A stretch of DNA of 64,000 nucleotides from positions 9,980 through 73,979 of the forward strand of contig CALFWV010000042.1 of the NCBI GenBank assembly GCA_937927825.1. The letters are read 5' to 3'. The stretch is from an uncultured Caulobacterales bacterium. Lineage in GTDB: Bacteria > Pseudomonadota > Alphaproteobacteria > Caulobacterales > Maricaulaceae. Position 1 is the stretch's first letter, and each line of letters starts with the position of its first letter. The notes under the pieces were generated by a model. The model searched no databases. It was not told where the DNA came from and was given only the letters and a program-made list of their open reading frames with translations. Positions 42,772 to 54,427 of this stretch are shown piece after piece. Made by a program: the position numbers and the translations under genes.

Positions 42772-43731
42772 TTAGGAGGTCTGTTTAGGCGCGGCCGGGT
42801 CTGCTGCCCCGCCTTCAACTGTCTTTTTGGCGACCTTCTTATCTATCGACTCCAGTGGCTTTCGTTTCGTATCCGCAATACGCAAACGTTTCACACGGCG
42901 CGAGTCGGCATCCATGACTTCAAATTCCACACCCGAAGCATGGCGGATAATTTCACCGCGCTCCGGCACGCGGCCCGCCAGAGTAAATATCAATCCGCCC
43001 AGCGTATCGACATCATCTTCTTCGTCAGGAGTCGCGAAATCCCGGCCCATCGTTTTTTCAAAATCATCAATAAGGACCCGCGCATCGGCCTCCCAAACAG
43101 AGCGTCCATTCTTGCCGGTCACGATTTGAACTTCGGGCTCTTGCTCGTCATGTTCATCATCAATATCGCCGACAATGGTTTCAATCAGATCTTCAATCGT
43201 GACCAACCCATCCGTACCGCCATATTCATCGACCACAACCGCCATGTGAATGCGCCGTCCTTGCATCCGCCGCAGCAGATCCTGCGCCAGCATGGAAGGC
43301 GGGACAAAGAGGACTTCGCGCCGGATATATTGGAGCACCTTTTTCGCCGGATAGGTTTTATTTGTGCGCCCTTTTGCATCCAACATGAGGTAGGGCAGTA
43401 AGTCTTTAATATGGACCATGCCCGTCGGCTCATCCAAAGTATCCTTATAAACCGGCAAACGCGAATGCCCGGCAACCTTAAATGCGGCGGAGAGTTCTGT
43501 CAGCGTTGCGCCGCTATCCACGGCGACGATATCAGCGCGCGGGACCATAACGTCATCCACCCGCAAACGGTGAAAGCGCTCTGCGGCGTTTACCATACGG
43601 CGCTGTGACAAATCAGACGCTTTCGGCGTCGTCGGCACATGCGGCTCGGGGCGTTTGAGAAGGTCACGCAAGCGGCGCTTTGGCGGCAATGCGGGCGGGA
43701 TGTCGTCGGTCATGATAAGATTAGTCGTCAC
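42772..43731 (-). CDS. corC: CBS-domain hemolysin/CorC family protein
   Basis: [55 protein letters not shown], CorC C-terminal domain. Confidence 0.93.
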
Positions 43732-44167
43732 TCACCTGATAAGGGTTGTCAATGCCTAGGGTCGCCAGAGCCGCAATTTCAATAGATTCCATCTCCGCAG
43801 CCGCTGCCTCTTCCACATGGTCGAACCCCTGTAGATGTAGCCAGCCATGGATGATAAGATGGGTCACATGCGCTTCAAAGGTGACGCCCTTCTCCAGCGC
43901 CTCTCGCGCCACGGTTTCCCGCGCCAAAATAATGTCACCTAAAAGCGGTCCGGTTTGCGGAAAGGACAACACATTGGTCGGCGCATCTTTCCCCCGATAA
44001 TCACGGTTCAAAACCTGCACCTGCGCATCATCGGATAACACCAGCGACAACTCACCCGCCCGCCTATCTTCCAGCTGCGCCGCAGCGCTCGCAACGGCCG
44101 CCTGCGCAAGGTCTAAGCAGTCAGCCCAGCCTCCGGCTTGAACGGCAATGTCGATGGGATGTTTCAT
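43721..44167 (-). CDS. ybeY: rRNA maturation endoribonuclease YbeY
   Basis: LNRDYRGKDAPTNVLSFP, LGDIIL, HLIIHGWLHLQGFDH. Start MKHPI at 44167. Confidence 0.96.
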   Translation of the reverse strand: MKHPIDIAVQAGGWADCLDLAQAAVASAAAQLEDRRAGELSLVLSDDAQVQVLNRDYRGKDAPTNVLSFPQTGPLLGDIILARETVAREALEKGVTFEAHVTHLIIHGWLHLQGFDHVEEAAAAEMESIEIAALATLGIDNPYQVSDD

Positions 44168-44401
44168 GGCGGGGGCCATAGGCGGTGTCAGCAGCTTTGG
44201 GAAGGGGCAGCGATGAAACATTTGCGCCTTTGCCATTTCGGTGAAGGGCCAAGCCGGTTTGTTTCACATGGCCGCTGAAACCCAATGCGCATTGGATAAT
44301 TTTAATCTTGCGGAATGAGCTTTAGAGTTAGTCGACTTTAATCTATATGAGGTTTAAATTCGCGGGCTCGATACAGCAGCTCATTTTCAGAGGGACACGC
44401 A

Positions 44402-46585
44402 ATGCGACTTAACATTTCTATCCGTAAGGTTTTACTTGGAACCACCGCTGCACTGGTACTCGCTGGCTGCGACGCAGCCAATCAACCCGCGACGGAGACA
44501 AAAGATATGGCGGATCAGACGGACATTCAGGTCGCAAAAAGTGCAACCGACAACACGGTTTTACAGCCTTGGACCGGCCCATATGACGGCGTGCCGGCCT
44601 GGGACGAAATCAAAGTGTCTGATTTCCCGGAAGCGTTCCAAGTGACGATGGATAAGGTCAAAGCAGAAGTAAACGCTATTCGTGATAACCCCGAGCCTCC
44701 CACATTTCAAAACTTCACGGAGCCTATGGAGCTTGCCGGAAGCAGTGCAAATGAGCTTTTCGCCATCTGGGGCGTACATTCCAGTAATCTTTCCAATGCC
44801 GAAGTCCGCGAAATTCAGGGCGAATGGCTGCCAAAGGTCTCTGCCTTTTTTAACGAGCTGACATTGGACCCAAAACTACTGGAAAAAACAAAAGCCGTTT
44901 ATGACACGCGTGCCAGCGCAGATCTGGACGCACAGCAGTTGCGGCTCGTGGAGCGCAATTATGAAGAACTGGTCCGAAACGGCGCCTTATTGGAAGGCGC
45001 CGAGAAGGAAAAGCTCATCGCGCTGAATACTGAATTGTCGAAACAATTTAATACGTTTTCGAATAAGGTCCTCGCGGATGAGGAAACCTATATTTTTCTC
45101 ACCGACACAGCAGACTTGGCCGGGTTATCGGATAGTTTTGTTGCCTCAATCAAGGCCGCCGCGGAAGCCCAAGGCAAAGAAGGGTGGGCGCTGAAAAACA
45201 CGCGCTCTGTGATGCAGCCTTTCTTGCAAAATTCGACCCGTCGGGATTTGCGCGAGAAAGTCTATAACGCCTATATCAATCGCGGTGACAATGGTGACGC
45301 AAATGACACCAATGCAACCATCGCAAAAATTCTGGACATTCGAGCGGAGCGCGCGAAGTTGCTAGGCTTTAAAACGCATGCACATTACCGCATGGCCGAC
45401 ACGATGGCGAAAGAGCCGGAGGTCGCGATGGATTTAATGATGCAAGTCTGGCCCGCTGCCGTGGCACGGGTCAAAGAAGAAGTCGCGGATATGCAAGCGG
45501 TCGCAGATACCGAAAATGCCAACATAACTATTGCGCCATGGGATTACCGTTTCTACGCGGAAAAGGTTCGCAAGGCGAAATATGATCTCGATGCCGCGGA
45601 AATTAAACCTTATTTCAAGCTCGATAATATGGTCGATGCCATGTTTGATGCCGCAGGCAAACTTTACGGCATGACCTTCACAGATAACACAGGCAGCGTT
45701 CCGGTGTTTGATCCCGAAGTCCGGACCTTTGAGGTAAAACGCGGGGACAAACTCATTGGGCTTTTTTATCTCGATAATTTTGCGCGAGAGGGAAAGCGGT
45801 CCGGCGCTTGGATGACAACCTATCGTAGCCGATATGATTTGGGCGGGAAGAACCGCTATGTTTTGGCCTCCAACAATAATAATTTTGTCAAAGGCGGAGA
45901 CGGAGAGCCAACGCTTATCAGCCTAGATGATGCAACAACACTGTTTCACGAATTTGGTCATGCGCTGCATTATCTGAATTATGATATTAAATATCCGGGC
46001 CTCGGCGGCACGCCGCGGGACTTTGTCGAATATCCCAGCCAAGTGAACGAGAACTGGCTCCTGACCCGTTACGTTTTGGACAATTATGCAAAACATGCGG
46101 AGACCGGAAAGCCGATGCCTCAGGCACTGGTCGACAAAATTAATACCTCCAAAACTTTCAATGAGGGATTCGCGACAGTCGAATATCTATCCAGTGCCAT
46201 TGTCGATATGAAACTTCATAATCGGGCAAAGCCTGTGACTAACGTCGATAAATTTGAGCACGAAACGCTAACTGAAATCGGTATGCCGAAAGAGATTGTG
46301 ATGCGTCATCGCCTTCCGCAATTTAATCACCTGTTCTCATCAGACGCCTATTCGGCGGGCTATTATAGCTACCTCTGGTCCGAGACAATGGATGCGGATA
46401 CTTGGGCTGCATTTGAAGAAGCCGGAAGCCCTTGGGACAAAGATACCGCAGAAGCGTTCCGCTCAATTATCATGTCGACAGCGAATGAGACCGACCGCAA
46501 GGACGCCTATCGCGCGTTCCGTGGACGCGACCCGGAAGTTAAATATATTTTGCGAAAGCGCGGCTTCCCGGTTCCAAACGAATAA
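44402..46585 (+). CDS. dcp: M3 family metallopeptidase (peptidyl-dipeptidase Dcp-like), lipoprotein
   Basis: VLAGC lipobox; REGKRSGAWM, TLFHEFGHALH, RDFVEYPSQVNENW, YSAGYYSYLWSE. Confidence 0.93.
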   Translation: MRLNISIRKVLLGTTAALVLAGCDAANQPATETKDMADQTDIQVAKSATDNTVLQPWTGPYDGVPAWDEIKVSDFPEAFQVTMDKVKAEVNAIRDNPEPPTFQNFTEPMELAGSSANELFAIWGVHSSNLSNAEVREIQGEWLPKVSAFFNELTLDPKLLEKTKAVYDTRASADLDAQQLRLVERNYEELVRNGALLEGAEKEKLIALNTELSKQFNTFSNKVLADEETYIFLTDTADLAGLSDSFVASIKAAAEAQGKEGWALKNTRSVMQPFLQNSTRRDLREKVYNAYINRGDNGDANDTNATIAKILDIRAERAKLLGFKTHAHYRMADTMAKEPEVAMDLMMQVWPAAVARVKEEVADMQAVADTENANITIAPWDYRFYAEKVRKAKYDLDAAEIKPYFKLDNMVDAMFDAAGKLYGMTFTDNTGSVPVFDPEVRTFEVKRGDKLIGLFYLDNFAREGKRSGAWMTTYRSRYDLGGKNRYVLASNNNNFVKGGDGEPTLISLDDATTLFHEFGHALHYLNYDIKYPGLGGTPRDFVEYPSQVNENWLLTRYVLDNYAKHAETGKPMPQALVDKINTSKTFNEGFATVEYLSSAIVDMKLHNRAKPVTNVDKFEHETLTEIGMPKEIVMRHRLPQFNHLFSSDAYSAGYYSYLWSETMDADTWAAFEEAGSPWDKDTAEAFRSIIMSTANETDRKDAYRAFRGRDPEVKYILRKRGFPVPNE

Positions 46586-46656
46586 GGCCGCATTGGCCGC
46601 GCGGCTTTAACGTTTTCTCTCTTCCCGCGCGGGCCTGCCCGCGCTAACGCGGGGTT

Positions 46657-48129
46657 ATGGAAAATACGTTTGGATTTCTCTCTTTGCTTCCGCCGATTTT
46701 GGCGATTGGATTGGCGCTTTGGTCGCGGCAGGTCTTTTTGGCGCTCTTCTTGGGTATTGCCTCCGGGTTTTTGATCCTCGGGGGCGGGAATCCGCTGGAG
46801 GGGGCAATGCTGACGATGGGCGGGTTTGTCGCCGTCTTCGAGAGCAATTATAATACAGAGATTATCATTTTCACCCTGCTGATTGGCGCGCTTATCGCGC
46901 TCATCCAACGCGCGGGCGGGGTTGAGGGATTTGTCAATCGCGTGCTGGACTGGCTGCAACGTAAAGCCGCCAGCGCGGACGGAAAAGGCCAGCGCAAGCG
47001 GGTAGAGCTCCTCGCTGTCTTGACCGGCGTTCTGATATTTGTGGAGAGCAATATTTCCACGCTGACGGTTGGTACACTCTATCGGCCCGTCACGGATGAG
47101 CTGAAAATTCCACGCGAGAAACTGGCCTATATTGCGGACAGCACCTGCGCACCGATTTGCATTCTCATTCCGCTGAATGCGTGGGGCGCTTATATTTTGG
47201 GCCTCTTGGGGGAACAAAATATGGAAAGCCCGATGTCAACGCTGGTTGGGGCCGTGGCGTTGAACTTCTATCCGATGCTGGCCATTGCTATCGTTGTCTT
47301 CGTGATTTTATCAGGCCGGGATGTCGGCGAAATGAAACGCGCGGAAGCCCGCGCGACCGAGCATGGCAAAATCCTTCGTGATGGCGCCGTGCCAATGATT
47401 GCAGGTGAAATCACGATGATGAACGCCAAAGCAGGCGCGACGCCAAAAGCGCGGAATATGATATTCCCGCTCGCGGCGCTCATCATTTTGATGCCTATTT
47501 TCATGCTCTACACAGGATGGAGTTCAGACGGTGACAATGGTTTATTCCAACTCGCCGACCGCGCCTCCGGATCGAAATCCGTGCTCTATTCTGTTTGCGG
47601 CGCAATCCTTGTCGCGATGGTTTTGAACAAATCCCAGGGTATCATGGGCGTGCGGGAAATGGTCGATGTCGTGCTGAAAGGGATGTCAGGCATGTTGCCG
47701 CTCGCGCTGCTTATGGTCTTCGCCTTTGCCCTTGGAAATCTATGCGGCGATTTGGGCACAGGGCAATATGTGGCGGAGGTTGCCAAACCATTCCTCTCGC
47801 CCGCACTTGTCCCTGCGCTAATTTTCCTCATCAGCGGGTTCATTGCCTTCTCCACAGGGACCAGTTGGGGAACCTTTGCCATCATGATTGCCATTGCAGT
47901 TCCGCTCGCGCAAGGCCTTGATACGAATGTGACCTTAGCGGTTGCGGCGGCGCTGGGCGGCGGCGTGTTCGGGGACCATTGCAGCCCGACATCCGATACA
48001 TCCATCATCACATCTATGGCGACCGCAAGTGACCATATCGACCATGTCAGAACGCAGCTCCCCTATGCCCTCATCGGCGGGGCCATCACGACGGGGCTTT
48101 ATTTAATTCTGGGAGTCATTGGTGTTTAA
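46657..48129 (+). CDS. Na+/H+ antiporter NhaC family / amino-acid transporter
   Basis: SLLPPILAIGLAL, REKLAYIADST, AFSTGTSWGTFAIM, GGVFGDHCSPTSDTSI..ATASDHIDHVRTQLPYA. Confidence 0.9.
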   Translation: MENTFGFLSLLPPILAIGLALWSRQVFLALFLGIASGFLILGGGNPLEGAMLTMGGFVAVFESNYNTEIIIFTLLIGALIALIQRAGGVEGFVNRVLDWLQRKAASADGKGQRKRVELLAVLTGVLIFVESNISTLTVGTLYRPVTDELKIPREKLAYIADSTCAPICILIPLNAWGAYILGLLGEQNMESPMSTLVGAVALNFYPMLAIAIVVFVILSGRDVGEMKRAEARATEHGKILRDGAVPMIAGEITMMNAKAGATPKARNMIFPLAALIILMPIFMLYTGWSSDGDNGLFQLADRASGSKSVLYSVCGAILVAMVLNKSQGIMGVREMVDVVLKGMSGMLPLALLMVFAFALGNLCGDLGTGQYVAEVAKPFLSPALVPALIFLISGFIAFSTGTSWGTFAIMIAIAVPLAQGLDTNVTLAVAAALGGGVFGDHCSPTSDTSIITSMATASDHIDHVRTQLPYALIGGAITTGLYLILGVIGV

Positions 48130-49387
48130 ATATCTTGGGATTTTAGCCGTAGGTTTAAGCGCCTGCACCGCGGCTGCCGGCCCCGCCGCGCAAAACCATC
48201 TCGGCATTGAATATGCCGTGGCAGAACGCTGGCAATTACCCGTGCTCAACACAGATTGGAAACGCGCCGCGCCCTTTGACGCGATGGGTCCCGCCTGTCC
48301 GCAAGACGGGCAAGCCGTTATGAAAGAGGACTGCCTGTTCCTGAATGTCTTCACGCCCGGCGATACGAAAAATGCACCTGTGTTGGTTTGGTTTCACGGC
48401 GGCGGATTTCGCGCCGGGTCGGGCGGAGACGGACCCAAGACCTTTGTAAATGACGGCGTGGTGGTGGTCACATTTAATTACCGCTTGGGAAAGCTCGGCT
48501 TTCACGATTGGGCAGGATGGGATGAAGGTAACCCGCGTAATTTCGGGCAAGCTGATATGGTGGCCGCGCTGGATTGGGTTCAAGCCAACATTGCCCAATT
48601 TGGCGGCGACCCAAAAAATGTGACCCTCGCAGGACATAGCGCCGGTGGCATGGGAGTGCAGTTGATGCTGACCGACACACGCGCCAAGGGGAAATTTGCG
48701 CGGGCATGGACGCATGCAGGATATGGTTCATGGCCTTTCCCCAAAGCCTTTAACCCCAGTCCTGAAATCCGCGCCCGCATTCGCTACCGCGCATTGGAAA
48801 CGGCGCGCCCGGCAGACCAAATCGTCGCGCAGACGCCATTTTTCCACCTTCCCTATATTGACGCACCGCACTTATCTGAACAACCCAACAGGCTCTGGGC
48901 GAAAGGATATGTCGCAGACGTCCCCATTGTCACGGGGTGGAACTCCTATGACGGTGCGGGGACCTTGGGCGGCGCTGGTTTTTCGGTCGAAGACTTCATA
49001 AAGCGCATAGACAGCGACGAGATTCGCGCCGCCTATGGAGCTGATTTCGCCGTGTCGGACACCCAAGCAGCCCAACGGATTTTCGGCGATATGCGCTATG
49101 GCGTGTCGAGCCTCGAGCTCGCTGACCAAGGAAATGGCTGGAGTTTCTATTACGACGACCGGCAAGCGGGCGCGCCGGGTGCCTATCACGGACAGCAATA
49201 TGATAGTTTATTTGGGGGCGCAGAGTCTGATTTTCGGGAGGCCCTTTCCCAATTTATTCAAACCGGAAACCCGGGTTGGGACCTTGATGAAATCGGGCTA
49301 TTTTCGCCCGAATTGACATCCCAATCCAACGCCCTGTCTGATGCAAAGCGAGCCGCCCTGATATCCGCTTTAGAGGCAATAAAATGA
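48119..49387 (+). CDS. Type-B carboxylesterase, secreted
   Basis: EDCLFLNVFTP, VWFHGGGF, FNYRLGKLGF, FGGDPKNVTLAGHSAGG (catalytic Ser), AYHG. Confidence 0.9.
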   Translation: MVFKYLGILAVGLSACTAAAGPAAQNHLGIEYAVAERWQLPVLNTDWKRAAPFDAMGPACPQDGQAVMKEDCLFLNVFTPGDTKNAPVLVWFHGGGFRAGSGGDGPKTFVNDGVVVVTFNYRLGKLGFHDWAGWDEGNPRNFGQADMVAALDWVQANIAQFGGDPKNVTLAGHSAGGMGVQLMLTDTRAKGKFARAWTHAGYGSWPFPKAFNPSPEIRARIRYRALETARPADQIVAQTPFFHLPYIDAPHLSEQPNRLWAKGYVADVPIVTGWNSYDGAGTLGGAGFSVEDFIKRIDSDEIRAAYGADFAVSDTQAAQRIFGDMRYGVSSLELADQGNGWSFYYDDRQAGAPGAYHGQQYDSLFGGAESDFREALSQFIQTGNPGWDLDEIGLFSPELTSQSNALSDAKRAALISALEAIK

Positions 49388-49818
49388 TGAAGTCCTGTCT
49401 TACGTCGAGCGTTCTATTTCTTTCGACCTGCGCCGCAGACGCGCAAGACGTCAGACCCAATGTAGCGGGCGAGTGGGCGAATGAGCGCGGCTCCTCTGTC
49501 ACATTTGTGGAAACGGACGGCGTATTATCCGGTTATTATAACACGCGGCTCGGCAATCCTGACCCTGCGTCGCGCTTTCCTTTGACCGGATTTATTGAAG
49601 GGGACCAAGTGACATTTACGGTCAATTTCAAGGGCTATGGCAGCCTCACAAGTTGGACCGGGCAAATTAGTGAGGATGAGGATGGGGCTTATATCCGGAC
49701 GCTTTGGCATCTCACACGCGATGTTTTGGATGCAGAAGAAGAGGCGGATTTGTGGTCATCCATCATTGCGGGATCTGCCAATTTTCGCCCCGTGGAACCC
49801 GCTATAGACGCTAAGTGA
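49384..49818 (+). CDS. Avidin/streptavidin family protein, secreted
   Basis: GEWANERGS, LSGYYNT, FPLTG, VTFTVNF, SLTSWTGQ, IRTLWHL, WSSIIAGSANF follow the avidin eight-strand barrel pattern; ATGA overlap with the esterase. Confidence 0.9.
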   Translation: MMKSCLTSSVLFLSTCAADAQDVRPNVAGEWANERGSSVTFVETDGVLSGYYNTRLGNPDPASRFPLTGFIEGDQVTFTVNFKGYGSLTSWTGQISEDEDGAYIRTLWHLTRDVLDAEEEADLWSSIIAGSANFRPVEPAIDAK

Positions 49819-50296
49819 AATCCTTAACCGCCCTCGGCGCGACATAGCGCGCCACAAACACACCCACTATCATGCTGGCGATGACGGCAATCAGCGAGGC
49901 TTTTGTGATATCGACAAAGGCATAAAGACCCGCATCGATGGACGTCGGTATGGCAGAAAACAAAGCGGTAAAAAAATTATCTGTTGTGTTTTGATAGGCA
50001 GAAAATGTGCCCGTTTTTAAATTCGCCAAAAAGGCCGGCAGCGGGATAATCGTAACGGCTGTACAAAATCCGGCCATCGCTCCGCGCGGGATACTGTCCT
50101 TTTTCAAATGAGTGACCGTCCAAAATATGAAACTGATAAGGGATGTACTGACGGCGATTAGAACCGCAATCTTCAAAACATCAGCGAGTAGATCCGCTTC
50201 GCCGCCCAAGACCTGCAGGGTTATCGCCATACAAAATGTTGTCGCGAAAAGCGTCATGAGTATTGTAAATAAGCGGCGTTGAGAAAGCGTTTTCAT
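49811..50296 (-). CDS. Hypothetical membrane protein (about 4 TM)
   Basis: Four long hydrophobic segments; fills the gap downstream of dnaJ. Confidence 0.7.
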   Translation of the reverse strand: MKTLSQRRLFTILMTLFATTFCMAITLQVLGGEADLLADVLKIAVLIAVSTSLISFIFWTVTHLKKDSIPRGAMAGFCTAVTIIPLPAFLANLKTGTFSAYQNTTDNFFTALFSAIPTSIDAGLYAFVDITKASLIAVIASMIVGVFVARYVAPRAVKDFT

Positions 50297-50447
50297 ATGC
50301 GGTTTTGATCCATTTAAACATCAGTATGAATATCCGGCGTAGGCCGAGAGGACGCTCAATCAATACGGGCCGTGCCAATCCAGAGCAACGCAATCATATC
50401 GCTATGATTTCTGCGCGGTTTTCCCGCCCCGCCATTTCCGATTGGAA

Positions 50448-51614
50448 TCAGTCAACCAAACCATCCCAGAAAGACTTCGCCTTATCAAAGAAATTTCGGC
50501 TTTGCGGCGATTCAGAATGGGTGCCACCTTCTAACGCAAATTCTTCGAGAAGCTCTTTCTGGCGCTTGGTCAGGCCGGACGGCGTCTCCACCGCAAGCTC
50601 GATATACATGTCGCCGCGTTTGTCAGAGCGTAGGACACTCATCCCTTTACCGCGTAAGCGCAGGCGTTTTCCGGTTTGACTGCCGTCGCTGACTTTGATC
50701 TTTGACCGTCCGCCATCAATGGTCGGAATTTCAATGTCACCGCCGAGCGCAGCCGTCGTCATGGGCACAGGGGCGCGGCAGAACAGGTTCGCGCCGTCGC
50801 GTTCGAAAAGGTCATGCGGTTTAACGCTAACGAAAATATAAAGATCGCCGCGCTGCGTCCCGCCGCTCGCCCCGCGTCGGGGCGCGGCATCGCCTTGGCC
50901 CGTCAGGCGGATGCGCGTACCGTCCTCGACACCCGCCGGAATGGATACATCGAGTTCTGTTTCTTGGCGCGTCTGGCCAACACCGTCGCAAGATGTGCAG
51001 GGGTTTGAGACATATTCACCCTGCCCGCCGCAGGTTGGACAGGCGCGTTCCATTTGGAAAAACCCTTGCTGCGTACGCACGCGCCCTTGTCCGGCGCAGG
51101 TTGAACAGGTTTCAACACTCGCCCCCGGTTCCGCGCCCATACCATCACAGCGCTCGCAATCTTCCGCAATCGGTACGGTGATATCAATGTCTTTCCCGGC
51201 GAAAGCTTCCTCAAGCGTGATTTCAAGCTCATAGCGAAGGTCGGAGCCGCGCTGTACGGTTTGACGTTGACGCCGTCCACCGCCGCCAAACATATCGGCA
51301 AATCCGCCGCCGCCCGCGCCGCCGCCAAAAATCTGGCTGAAAATATCATTGAAATCCTGGAAGCCGCCAGCACCACCCGCGCCGCCGCCCTCAAAGGCCG
51401 CATGGCCCATCCGGTCATAGGCTGCGCGTTTCTGCTCGTCCGAGAGAATACCGTAAGCCTCATTAAGTTCTTTGAACCGCGCTTCGGCTTTAGGGTCATC
51501 GGGATGCCGATCAGGATGGCATTCCATGGCCTTCTTGCGGAAGGCCGACTTCATCGTTTTGGCATCAGCGTTTTTAGCTACGCCGAGCGTCTCATAATAA
51601 TCTCGTTTTGACAT
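50448..51614 (-). CDS. dnaJ: Chaperone DnaJ
   Basis: [11 protein letters not shown] motif, G/F-rich linker, four CxxCxGxG repeats. Confidence 0.99.
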
Positions 51615-52457
51615 TTAAGTCTGGTCCCGTTTTCGCACGACAACATTCATGCGTGTGCGTGTAGTTATCAAATAGTCATGCGCCTGCACCAGTTCAATGA
51701 GCGGCGCGGCAGATGTGTCATCCACTTCTAAGATCATCATAAGTGGATGAAGGGTCGCTGGAGCCTGTTCAAAAAATTGAGACAGGACAGGTAAATCTTG
51801 GCCTTCGATATCCAGCTTTAGGGCGTCAATACGGTCAATTTTTGCGCCCTCACAGAGTTGGAGTAACGTCACGGCTTGAACCGCTTCGCCGCTGGCCGCA
51901 ATTTGACCCTCGCCGCGATTACCACCGCCGTCGGACAGAAACACGTCACCGACATGGGTTGAGATTGCCGAACGAATGACCTCAACATGGGCGTCAGATG
52001 CCGCCGCATTCACGGCCAATCGCGTACCCATTTCAGAACTCGGTTCGACCGCAATCAATCGAATGTCACGATCGGATTTAGCCGCATAGGCATTGGCGAA
52101 GAGTGAATATAGTCCGACATTTGCGCCGATATCTAAGAATATGAATGGGGACGAACTGGATCGGATTATCGCAGTCTGCAGAGCATCTCGTTCCGCCGCA
52201 TCCCATATTTGCACACCGCAAAGCGCGCGTTTTTCACATCGATTGGTCGACGGATATAGACGCGCTTTAACACCGGGCGCGACGGCGACATCGAAGGGTT
52301 CTGGCAGGCCGCGAATAGCTTGTTTACGGCAAAGGCTAATGGTCCAACGGCCTATTCTATCTTGCCCCATCAGGCGCGCAGAAAACCGTCTCGCTTCACG
52401 GTTCGGTGGAAGCGCGTAATGCCCAAAGGGCGGGTCGATATGTGTGATGTTCCCCAT
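51615..52457 (-). CDS. FkbM family SAM-dependent methyltransferase
   Basis: FLDIGANVGLYSL, IAVEPS, IDALKLDIEG. Confidence 0.9.
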   Translation of the reverse strand: MGNITHIDPPFGHYALPPNREARRFSARLMGQDRIGRWTISLCRKQAIRGLPEPFDVAVAPGVKARLYPSTNRCEKRALCGVQIWDAAERDALQTAIIRSSSSPFIFLDIGANVGLYSLFANAYAAKSDRDIRLIAVEPSSEMGTRLAVNAAASDAHVEVIRSAISTHVGDVFLSDGGGNRGEGQIAASGEAVQAVTLLQLCEGAKIDRIDALKLDIEGQDLPVLSQFFEQAPATLHPLMMILEVDDTSAAPLIELVQAHDYLITTRTRMNVVVRKRDQT

Positions 52458-52460
52458 TTG

Positions 52461-52490
52461 AAAAAGGCCCCGCGTGAGACACGCGGAGCC
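52461..52490 (-). terminator. Intrinsic terminator after dnaK
   Basis: Minus strand GGCTCCGCGTG-TCT-CACGCGGGGCC-TTTTT. Confidence 0.8.
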
Positions 52491-52516
52491 CTCAATCTCG
52501 TTAGACGCGCCGCAGC

Positions 52517-54427
52517 TTACGCAACGTTTTCGTCGTCAACATCTTCAAATTCAGCATCGACAACATCGTCGTCATCATCGGCTTGATCCGCTTGTGACGC
52601 CGGACCGGTATCTGCGTCTGCGGCGGCATTTTCATACATGCTTTGTCCGACTTTCATCAGCGCTGCAGACAGGACCTGAACCTTATCGACGATAAGCGCC
52701 GTGTCTTCGCCTTCGGAAACGTCTTTGGCTTCCGCGAGGGCTTCCTCGACAGCGACCTTGTCTTCCTCAGAAATCGCATCTGCGTGCTCTTTCAGGTCTG
52801 ACTCGGCCTTATGGATCATGGCTTCGGCTTGGTTCTTGGCTTCGACCAGCTCGCGGCGGGCTTTATCGCCTTCCGCATTGGCTTCAGCGTCTTTGACCAT
52901 CGCTTCGATATCTTCATCGCTTAGGCCGCCGCTGGCTTGGATACGGATTTGTTGTTCCTTACCGGTGGCATTATCTTTGGCCGACACGTTCACAATACCA
53001 TTGGCATCAATGTCAAAAGTCACTTCGATTTGCGGCATGCCCCGCGGTGCGGGCGGAATACCAACCAAGTCAAACTGACCAAGAAGTTTATTATCGGCCG
53101 CCATTTCGCGTTCGCCTTGGCTGACCTTAATCGTCACAGCAGACTGATTATCTGTCGCGGTTGAATAGACCTGAGACTTCTTCGTCGGAATGGTTGTGTT
53201 GCGGTCAATCATGCGTGTGAACAACCCGCCTTCGGTCTCAATACCAAGGGACAATGGTGTCACGTCCAGCAAGAGAACGTCTTTGACATCGCCCTGCAAA
53301 ACACCGGCCTGGATAGCGGCGCCCATGGCCACAACCTCATCGGGGTTCACACCCTTATGCGGCTCTTTACCGAAGTATTTTGTCACAGCCGCCTGAACAG
53401 CCGGCATACGCGTCATGCCGCCGACGAGAACAACGTCATCAATATCAGCGGCCGTTAACCCTGCATCCGCAATCGCTTTTTTGATTGGCGCGATGGTGCG
53501 CTTGATAAGATCATCGACAAGCTTCTCCAGCTTGGCGCGGGACAATTTCATGTTCAAATGTTTCGGGCCGGTCGCATCTGCCGTGATGAAGGGGAGGTTC
53601 ACTTCATAAGACGAGGCTGTGGACAGCTCTTTTTTGGCTTTCTCGGCTTCTTCGCGCAAACGCTGAAGGGCAAGTTTGTCTTTCTTAAGATCAATCGCAT
53701 TGTCTTTTTTGAACTCATCCGCAAAATATTCAACGATACGCATATCGAAGTCTTCCCCGCCGAGGAATGTATCGCCATTCGTGGATTTCACTTCAAAAAC
53801 GCCGTCTCCGATTTCAAGAACGGACACGTCAAATGTACCGCCGCCAAGATCGTAAACCGCAATCGTTTTGCCGTCTTCTTTATTCATGCCGTAAGCCAGC
53901 GCTGCCGCTGTCGGCTCGTTGATAATACGCAGAACTTCGAGACCGGCAATTTTACCGGCATCTTTTGTCGCCTGACGCTGAGCATCATTAAAATAGGCCG
54001 GAACCGTAATCACAGCCTGGGTGACTGTCGCGCCGAGATAATCCTCGGCCGTTTCTTTCATCTTCGTCAATGTCATGGCGGAGATTTCAGCCGGGGAAAG
54101 TTCCTTGTCACGGCCCTGAACATAGGCGTCGCCGCCGCGACCTTTGACGATTTTATAAGGGACGAGTTTGGCGTCCTTCTTAATGGCCGGATCTGTAAAT
54201 GGACGTCCGATAAGGCGTTTCACCGCGAAATATGTATGTTCCGGGTTCGTCACCGCTTGGCGTTTCGCGGGCGTGCCGATGAGGCGCTCGCCATCCTCGG
54301 TAAAGGCCACAACAGACGGGGTGGTCCGTTGACCTTCCGCGTTTTCAATAACTTTTGGCGTATCGCCATCCATGACCGCAACACAGGAGTTTGTGGTGCC
54401 TAGGTCAATGCCAATCACTTTAGACAT
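52517..54427 (-). CDS. dnaK: Chaperone DnaK (canonical Hsp70)
   Basis: [61 protein letters not shown], acidic C-terminus VVDAEFEDV. Confidence 0.99.

Follow-up and report, generated by a model that had tools for sequence, protein, structure and literature searches.

The transporter, esterase and avidin genes

A window of 64,000 nucleotides from an uncultured Caulobacterales bacterium (contig CALFWV010000042.1 of assembly GCA_937927825.1, positions 9,980 to 73,979 of the forward strand; source genome G000) was found to contain three overlapping genes for a transporter, a carboxylesterase and an avidin-like protein. An earlier note on this DNA had proposed that these genes, which it placed downstream of a lipoprotein peptidase gene, form a system for binding, de-esterifying and importing a small molecule such as a biotin or pimelate derivative. 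The three genes are as follows, with positions counted from the start of the window.

46657..48129, plus strand: NhaC-superfamily secondary transporter of 490 amino acids (aa), Tet(35)-like subgroup (PF03553)
48119..49387, plus strand: type-B carboxylesterase lipoprotein of 422 aa, predicted to be exported (PF00135)
49384..49818, plus strand: avidin/streptavidin-family protein of 144 aa, predicted to be exported (PF01382)

The start codon of the esterase gene is TTG (alternatively GTG at 48122), the gene shares 11 nt with the end of the transporter gene, and the avidin start and the esterase stop share the ATGA at 49384-49387. Both end-to-start overlaps are exactly as the earlier note had described them. 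The same overlaps recur in orthologous loci, and the three genes appear to be the tightly coupled transcription unit that it had taken them for.

The avidin matched PF01382 with 67 bits (cut-off 24), and positions 1-115 of the 116 in the profile were covered. Its AlphaFold model (pLDDT 90.4) was an eight-stranded antiparallel beta-barrel, the top Foldseek matches of which were all streptavidin, avidin or xenavidin (target TM 0.75-0.83). Alignment to streptavidin showed that the ureido-oxygen triad (N23, S27, Y43) was retained, as were the carboxylate-binding residues N49 and S88, T90 (thiophene), W92, W108 and the inter-subunit W120, with Thr at the S45 position. Three of the 4 contact tryptophans of streptavidin were present. 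The set of streptavidin contacts was incomplete, with L25 replaced by Arg, W79 by Phe and D128 by Ala, which is residue 132 of the protein. The loss of Asp128 was common to the whole clade of this avidin (22 sequences at least 45% identical), in which the position was Ala in 11 and Ser in 11, while N23, S27, Y43, T90, S88, N49, W92, W108 and W120 were invariant. Among 40 more distant relatives, 28 had Asp at this position. The top sequence matches of the avidin in the PDB included 1sws/1swt, in which the aligned sequence has Ala at 128 and which we take to be the engineered D128A mutant of streptavidin. The D128A change lowers the binding energy of streptavidin by 4.4 kcal/mol (PMC4888747).

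The N-terminus of the avidin is a signal peptide with a lipobox-like LSTC. A canonical lipobox such as LSAC, LLAC or LGGC is found in most of its orthologs, with a plain Ala-x-Ala cleavage site in the minority; the avidin is therefore predicted to be exported and usually lipid-anchored. The lipobox Cys in most orthologs argues for an avidin that is cell-bound rather than released.

The transporter matched PF03553 with 176.6 bits (cut-off 23) over residues 168-487, and gave a weaker match to the related DcuC carrier family. Its scores were under the NCBIfam equivalog cut-offs for NhaC (TIGR00931; 48 bits, cut-off 370), Tet(35) (NF000013; 167 bits, cut-off 750) and ArcD (NF052307; 39 bits, cut-off 650). 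The protein is a member of the NhaC superfamily, but not of the NhaC, Tet(35) or ArcD type. Members of this superfamily transport diverse organic substrates. A second NhaC-family paralog, 36% identical to the transporter, is located elsewhere in the source genome (G000:C46:890-2290).

The esterase matched PF00135 with 190.6 bits, and its best solved relative was PnbA of B. subtilis (E 2e-37). It has a lipobox (LSAC), an oxyanion HGGG motif (H93-G96), a nucleophile motif GHSAGG, a Ser174/Asp278/His357 triad and a Cys pair, and the catalytic, lipobox and Cys-pair residues were invariant across 9 orthologs. The alignment to PnbA stops just before the PnbA acid residue, and Asp278 and His357 were assigned to PnbA E310 and H399 by reading of the alignment. 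The enzyme shares with PnbA and other type-B carboxylesterases the HGGG motif, the GxSxG nucleophile, the acid, the His and the N-terminal disulfide Cys pair. It differs from PnbA in being approximately 70 residues shorter, in being a lipoprotein, in having GHSAGG rather than GESAGG and Asp rather than Glu as the acid, and in being encoded inside a transporter-avidin operon. By these residues the esterase looks catalytically competent, and because of its lipoprotein signal peptide it is expected to act outside the cytoplasm. Export of both the esterase and the avidin, as the earlier note had it, is thus consistent with the lipobox Cys of each. A BioH-type enzyme was considered for the esterase and rejected; there was no BioH model among its NCBIfam matches, and the protein has a lipoprotein signal peptide rather than being cytoplasmic.

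Conservation of the transporter-avidin pair

We surveyed 48 species genomes of Litorimonas/Hellea, the genus of the source genome, and examined the locus in 34 of them (26 avidin-bearing and 8 avidin-lacking). The transporter and avidin genes were adjacent in all 26 avidin-bearing congeners examined, not counting an esterase gene between them in some, and avidin identities were 46-83%. The pair was also adjacent in genus-level metagenome-assembled genomes (MAGs), in further metagenome contigs and in the sister genus Robiginitomaculum. The linkage is therefore not unique to this genome; uniqueness was part of what would have spoken against the proposal of the earlier note. In about 20 loci of the two-gene form, 8-14 nt are shared between the transporter end and the avidin start; loci with all three genes had overlaps of 8-20 nt at the first junction and 4-8 nt at the second. 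Overlaps of 4-20 nt recurring in about 30 orthologous loci are not due to chance. The 8 avidin-lacking genomes had otherwise the same synteny, with the avidin gene cleanly absent, and an ortholog of the transporter was found in 45 of the 48 congeners.

The esterase gene was located between the transporter and avidin genes in 5 of the 26 avidin-bearing congeners (G000, G017, G002, G023 and G055). It was also found in 3 MAG loci, 2 of which, judged by identities, may be conspecific with G023 and G045. Carriers of the esterase, about 1 species in 5, were spread over all 3 major clades. Two metagenome contigs (L092 and L094) had a remnant of approximately 100 esterase codons in the same slot, next to a transporter 90% identical to that of the window. 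These data show that the esterase is an old but dispensable accessory that is decaying in some contigs, and that the conserved core consists of transporter and avidin, to which the esterase is an optional addition. Of the three-part system in the earlier note, the transporter-avidin part was borne out by the comparison, and the esterase proved not to be a fixed component. The slot between the 2 core genes was occupied by other genes in 2 further loci, namely a gene for a 214-aa lipoprotein in L066 (5373-6017), the first residues of which (VFKYL) are like the esterase N-terminus, and an open reading frame of 428 aa in L043 (6005-7830).

Outside the genus, 4 loci of Robiginitomaculum type (L070:2068-6447, L071, L106 and L110) carried the avidin after the transporter (53-54% identity), in chromosomal surroundings unlike those in the genus. 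In each, a gene ahead of the pair on the same strand encodes an acylase of penicillin-amidase/PvdQ-like type that has a membrane anchor at its N-terminus. Two unrelated hydrolases have thus been recruited to the transporter-avidin pair, a carboxylesterase in Litorimonas/Hellea and a PvdQ-like acylase in Robiginitomaculum. A hydrolase as a component of the system, as claimed in the earlier note, holds to the extent that sister lineages have another hydrolase at the corresponding place.

Avidins of the same clade, 56-59% identical, were also found in a gammaproteobacterial group of 7 loci (L062:4803-7669, L069, L101-L103, L107 and L108). There, the avidin gene follows that of an Abhydrolase_6 protein with weak BioH-like matches and no visible signal peptide, and faces a GPH/MFS_2 transporter gene. 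The avidin gene adjoins an EamA transporter gene in G064 and follows mgtE in G067 and G068. The unlinked transporter orthologs of G064 and G068 had neighbors that were uninformative (MatE, AI-2E transporter, FemAB-like and SnoaL-like). A TonB-dependent receptor near the G064 avidin (locus L064) was considered and set aside as probably unrelated, given that a gene for a small basic protein intervenes and that the receptor is of siderophore type. Avidins beyond this clade were sampled through a genome search only.

The remaining features around the three genes are listed below.

42772-44236, minus strand: corC-ybeY pair, housekeeping genes flanking the 4 plus-strand genes on one side
44402-46585, plus strand: gene for an M3 peptidyl-dipeptidase-like (Dcp-like) lipoprotein (lipobox LAGC)
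46587..46605, plus strand: GC-rich hairpin and then a T-rich run, found by reading of the sequence; a terminator scan picks the same inverted repeat
46621..46649, plus strand: promoter-like motif CTTCCC-N16-GCTAACG, which ends 8 nt before the transporter ATG
49811-50296, minus strand: gene for a 161-aa multi-pass membrane protein, convergent to the avidin gene
50448-54427, minus strand: dnaJ-dnaK pair, housekeeping genes forming the other flank of the 4 plus-strand genes
51615-52457, minus strand: FkbM-type methyltransferase gene, between dnaJ and dnaK

The hairpin and T-rich run are probably the terminator of the M3 peptidase gene and the 5' boundary of the transporter unit. In at least 14 orthologous loci, GCTAACG (or GCTTAACG, GCTATCG) is equally far from the start codon, and we take it to resemble the Caulobacter-type -10 element GCTANAWC. 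Because the hairpin with its T-rich run and this conserved upstream motif lie between the 2 genes, the transcription unit most likely begins at the transporter, with the M3 peptidase gene separate from it. The earlier note had placed the three genes downstream of the peptidase gene. The peptidase is a species-specific neighbor, with what is probably its own terminator, and no other locus examined had it next to the transporter.

What lies between ybeY and the transporter gene seems to vary, with approximately 3 kb of other DNA there in L046/L053. The gene for the 161-aa membrane protein overlaps the avidin stop by 8 nt and had no Pfam or NCBIfam match. It was kept in position in many congeners (29-70% identity), including 6 of the 8 avidin-lacking loci examined. 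The FkbM-type methyltransferase gene is an unusual insert between dnaK and dnaJ that was found in most, not all, congeners.

Biotin genotype and retention of the avidin

The source genome (92% complete) encodes the biotin ligase BirA; bioB and bioD were not found in it. Its host would thus need biotin without being able to make it. BioY (PF02632) was not found in 10 genomes, G000 among them, and E. coli BioP/YigM likewise had no homolog in G000, nor in any of 4 high-quality congeners. Across the 48 congeners, bioB was present in 18 and bioD in 3 (G003, G004 and G006, which have both genes), and bioD was not found in the other 15 bioB carriers. Most of the bioB carriers would therefore be of a bioB-only type able to use dethiobiotin, a genotype that has been described for marine dethiobiotin users (PMC9561691).

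The avidin was present in 29 congeners in which bioB was absent and in 7 in which bioB was present. It was absent from 11 congeners with bioB and from 1 without bioB, which was 73% complete and held a fragment of the avidin gene. When only genomes at least 90% complete were counted, 18 had the avidin without bioB, 6 had both, 6 had bioB without the avidin, and none had neither. Avidin and bioB were associated in Fisher tests (p = 1e-5 for all genomes and p = 0.0016 for those at least 90% complete), which are naive tests, as relatives are not independent. A tree of DnaK and DnaJ showed 4 separate losses of the avidin, each in a bioB-carrying lineage. The chance that random loss would place all 4 in such lineages was about 0.02, given that 37% carry bioB. 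In all five genomes outside the genus that have an avidin of the same clade, neither bioB nor BioY was found; the completeness of these genomes is unknown. The avidin is thus retained where biotin must come from outside the cell and is dispensable where biotin can be made or dethiobiotin turned into it, which argues for acquisition rather than antibiosis. Moreover, a strict auxotroph gains nothing from locking up biotin unless that biotin can be recovered, which also favors acquisition. As to the ligand proposed in the earlier note, biotin is backed by the retention of the avidin wherever bioB is missing, and pimelate is not; nothing points to it, and the esterase is not of BioH type.

A possible role in biotin capture and uptake

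Taken together, these data suggest that the transporter-avidin pair could be a high-affinity module for biotin capture and uptake in auxotrophs, a reading that we give an even chance of being correct. In the fuller form of this proposal, to which we give slightly less than an even chance, the avidin would act as the capture lipoprotein of a vitamin uptake system and feed an NhaC-type carrier, with optional hydrolases freeing conjugated biotin. Lipid anchoring, coupling to a carrier, loss of Asp128 and the repeated recruitment of hydrolases would all fit such a capture-and-import module. Biotin in seawater ranges from <1.2 pM to 700 pM (PMC9561691), and the avidin may capture it at picomolar concentrations, for which such a module would have a clear use, whether in the periplasm or on the cell surface. 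From there, the co-translated transporter would move the biotin across the inner membrane. Ala or Ser in place of Asp128 throughout the clade may weaken binding and raise the off-rate, which would permit release. The esterase, and the PvdQ-like acylase of Robiginitomaculum, could free biotin from esterified or amide-linked forms (biocytin, biotinyl peptides). We infer from the genes and their distribution that biotin is the ligand, passed on by the avidin and carried by the NhaC-type protein, and that the esterase has such conjugates as its target.

Several results weigh against this proposal. An ortholog of the transporter was retained in all of the avidin-less genomes examined and in the 3 carriers of bioB and bioD; the transporter therefore functions alone and could carry another solute. 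Two relatives, G064 and G068, have the avidin at one locus and the transporter ortholog at another. No BioR-type TTATNNATAA site was found upstream of the transporter in the 41 loci searched, and Rfam gave no match at E up to 1 across 46300-50500, and so no riboswitch or other known RNA. The 4 independent losses of the avidin are too few for a sign test (p = 0.25). At 92% completeness, genes missing from G000 could be unassembled, although congeners with complete chromosomes share its genotype. Three EamA-family transporters in G000 are possible unrecognized biotin carriers. In a sample of 401 Alphaproteobacteria, bioB was present in 4 of 10 avidin carriers compared to 151 of 401 genomes overall, giving no link with bioB absence, and none of the avidins of that sample had an NhaC gene beside it. 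(This bioB background includes 2 unpublished genomes, G100 and G274, both with bioB; the conclusions do not depend on either.) Finally, gene context is the only evidence that the esterase may act on biotin esters or amides.

Three other explanations were considered. The avidin could withhold biotin from competitors or grazers, with the transporter being an unrelated housekeeping carrier whose promoter is merely used by the avidin gene. We regard this as unlikely, even though several of the results above accord with it: the transporter is near-universal in the genus regardless of biotin genotype and persists after avidin loss, it is unlinked from the avidin in 2 genomes, the association with auxotrophy is absent at the level of the class, and a published survey of bacterial avidin genes found no clear association with particular pathways or functions (PMC8033661). 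However, a strict auxotroph without a known importer would starve itself by withholding biotin. The avidin was kept in all bioB-less genomes, apart from the 73% complete genome with the avidin fragment, and lost only where bioB is present, which is the opposite of what would be predicted for a weapon. The lipobox Cys of most orthologs suggests that the protein is not released, the Asp128 carboxylate has been lost clade-wide, and the stop-start overlap has been kept in about 30 loci.

The pattern of bioB is accounted for equally well if the avidin is a periplasmic store or buffer of biotin, with another carrier, such as one of the EamA family, performing the import and the NhaC-type protein carrying an unrelated solute. 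The transporter is kept without the avidin, as this explanation would allow, and the EamA transporter that adjoins the avidin of G064 has an 82%-identical ortholog in the source genome (G000:C101:10669-11568). That EamA transporter was also considered as an ortholog of E. coli BioP and rejected; it is a remote relative (27% identity over 157 residues, pairwise E 0.001). A store would leave unexplained why the NhaC gene is coupled to the avidin gene across 2 genera and despite the insertion of a third gene, and we consider it distinctly unlikely. Alternatively, the ligand could be another small carboxylate or ureido compound, the altered pocket reflecting a changed specificity. The differences at 3 contact positions (L25 to R, W79 to F and D128 to A), the diversity of NhaC-superfamily substrates and the failure to find a biotin regulatory element would be compatible with such a ligand. 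We consider it improbable, as the residues for the ureido oxygen, thiophene and carboxylate and 3 of the 4 contact tryptophans are invariant in the clade, and an association with missing bioB points to biotin in particular.

The proposed biotin capture and uptake module has partial counterparts among known systems. Streptavidin, rhizavidin, hoefavidin and shwanavidin share with the avidin described here the eight-stranded barrel, most contacts including the Trp120 equivalent, and an N-terminal export signal. Unlike those proteins, this clade has Ala or Ser at Asp128 and mostly a lipobox Cys; the avidin gene is translationally coupled to that of a transporter, and its occurrence goes with the lack of bioB. 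DctM, TctA and NhaC are placed in the same ion-transporter superfamily. The pair follows the same logic as TRAP (DctPQM) and TTT (TctABC) systems, in which a high-affinity binder outside the cytoplasm is encoded alongside an ion-coupled carrier, with no homology claimed. It is not a member of either, since the binder has the avidin fold rather than being DctP or TctC and the carrier is NhaC-type by Pfam, and the carrier here outlives loss of the binder, so that any dependence is not obligate. In Bacteroides, the surface lipoprotein BtuG binds vitamin B12 very tightly and captures it for the receptor BtuB. The role proposed for the avidin would be alike in that a lipid-anchored binder of very high affinity serves vitamin acquisition; BtuG differs in its fold, in its vitamin and in its partner, which is a TonB-dependent outer-membrane receptor as opposed to an inner-membrane carrier. 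BioY (an ECF S-component) and BioP/YigM (EamA) have the same role as that proposed here, uptake of biotin by an auxotroph, and the NhaC-type protein belongs to an unrelated family. Literature searches returned nothing relevant on NhaC with biotin or avidin, or on NhaC transporters assisted by a binding protein. Taken singly, the proteins are new members of known families, and their combination is not described in the literature searched.

About half of aquatic bacteria are unable to make biotin, and its concentrations in seawater are picomolar (PMC9561691). Many biotin-requiring aquatic bacteria, including the source of this genome, have no recognizable biotin importer. The sole systematic survey of bacterial avidins yielded no informative gene context (PMC8033661). 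The hypothesis is testable in culturable species of Litorimonas and Hellea, of which Litorimonas cladophorae and Litorimonas sp. WD9-15 are examples without bioB, and a natural avidin clade without Asp128 may supply reversible binders of biotin. If the proposal is correct, the transporter-avidin pair would join BioY and BioP/YigM as a third type of biotin importer in bacteria, its transporter would be the first of the NhaC family to be assisted by a binding protein, and bacterial avidins would gain a nutritional role rather than one in antibiosis.

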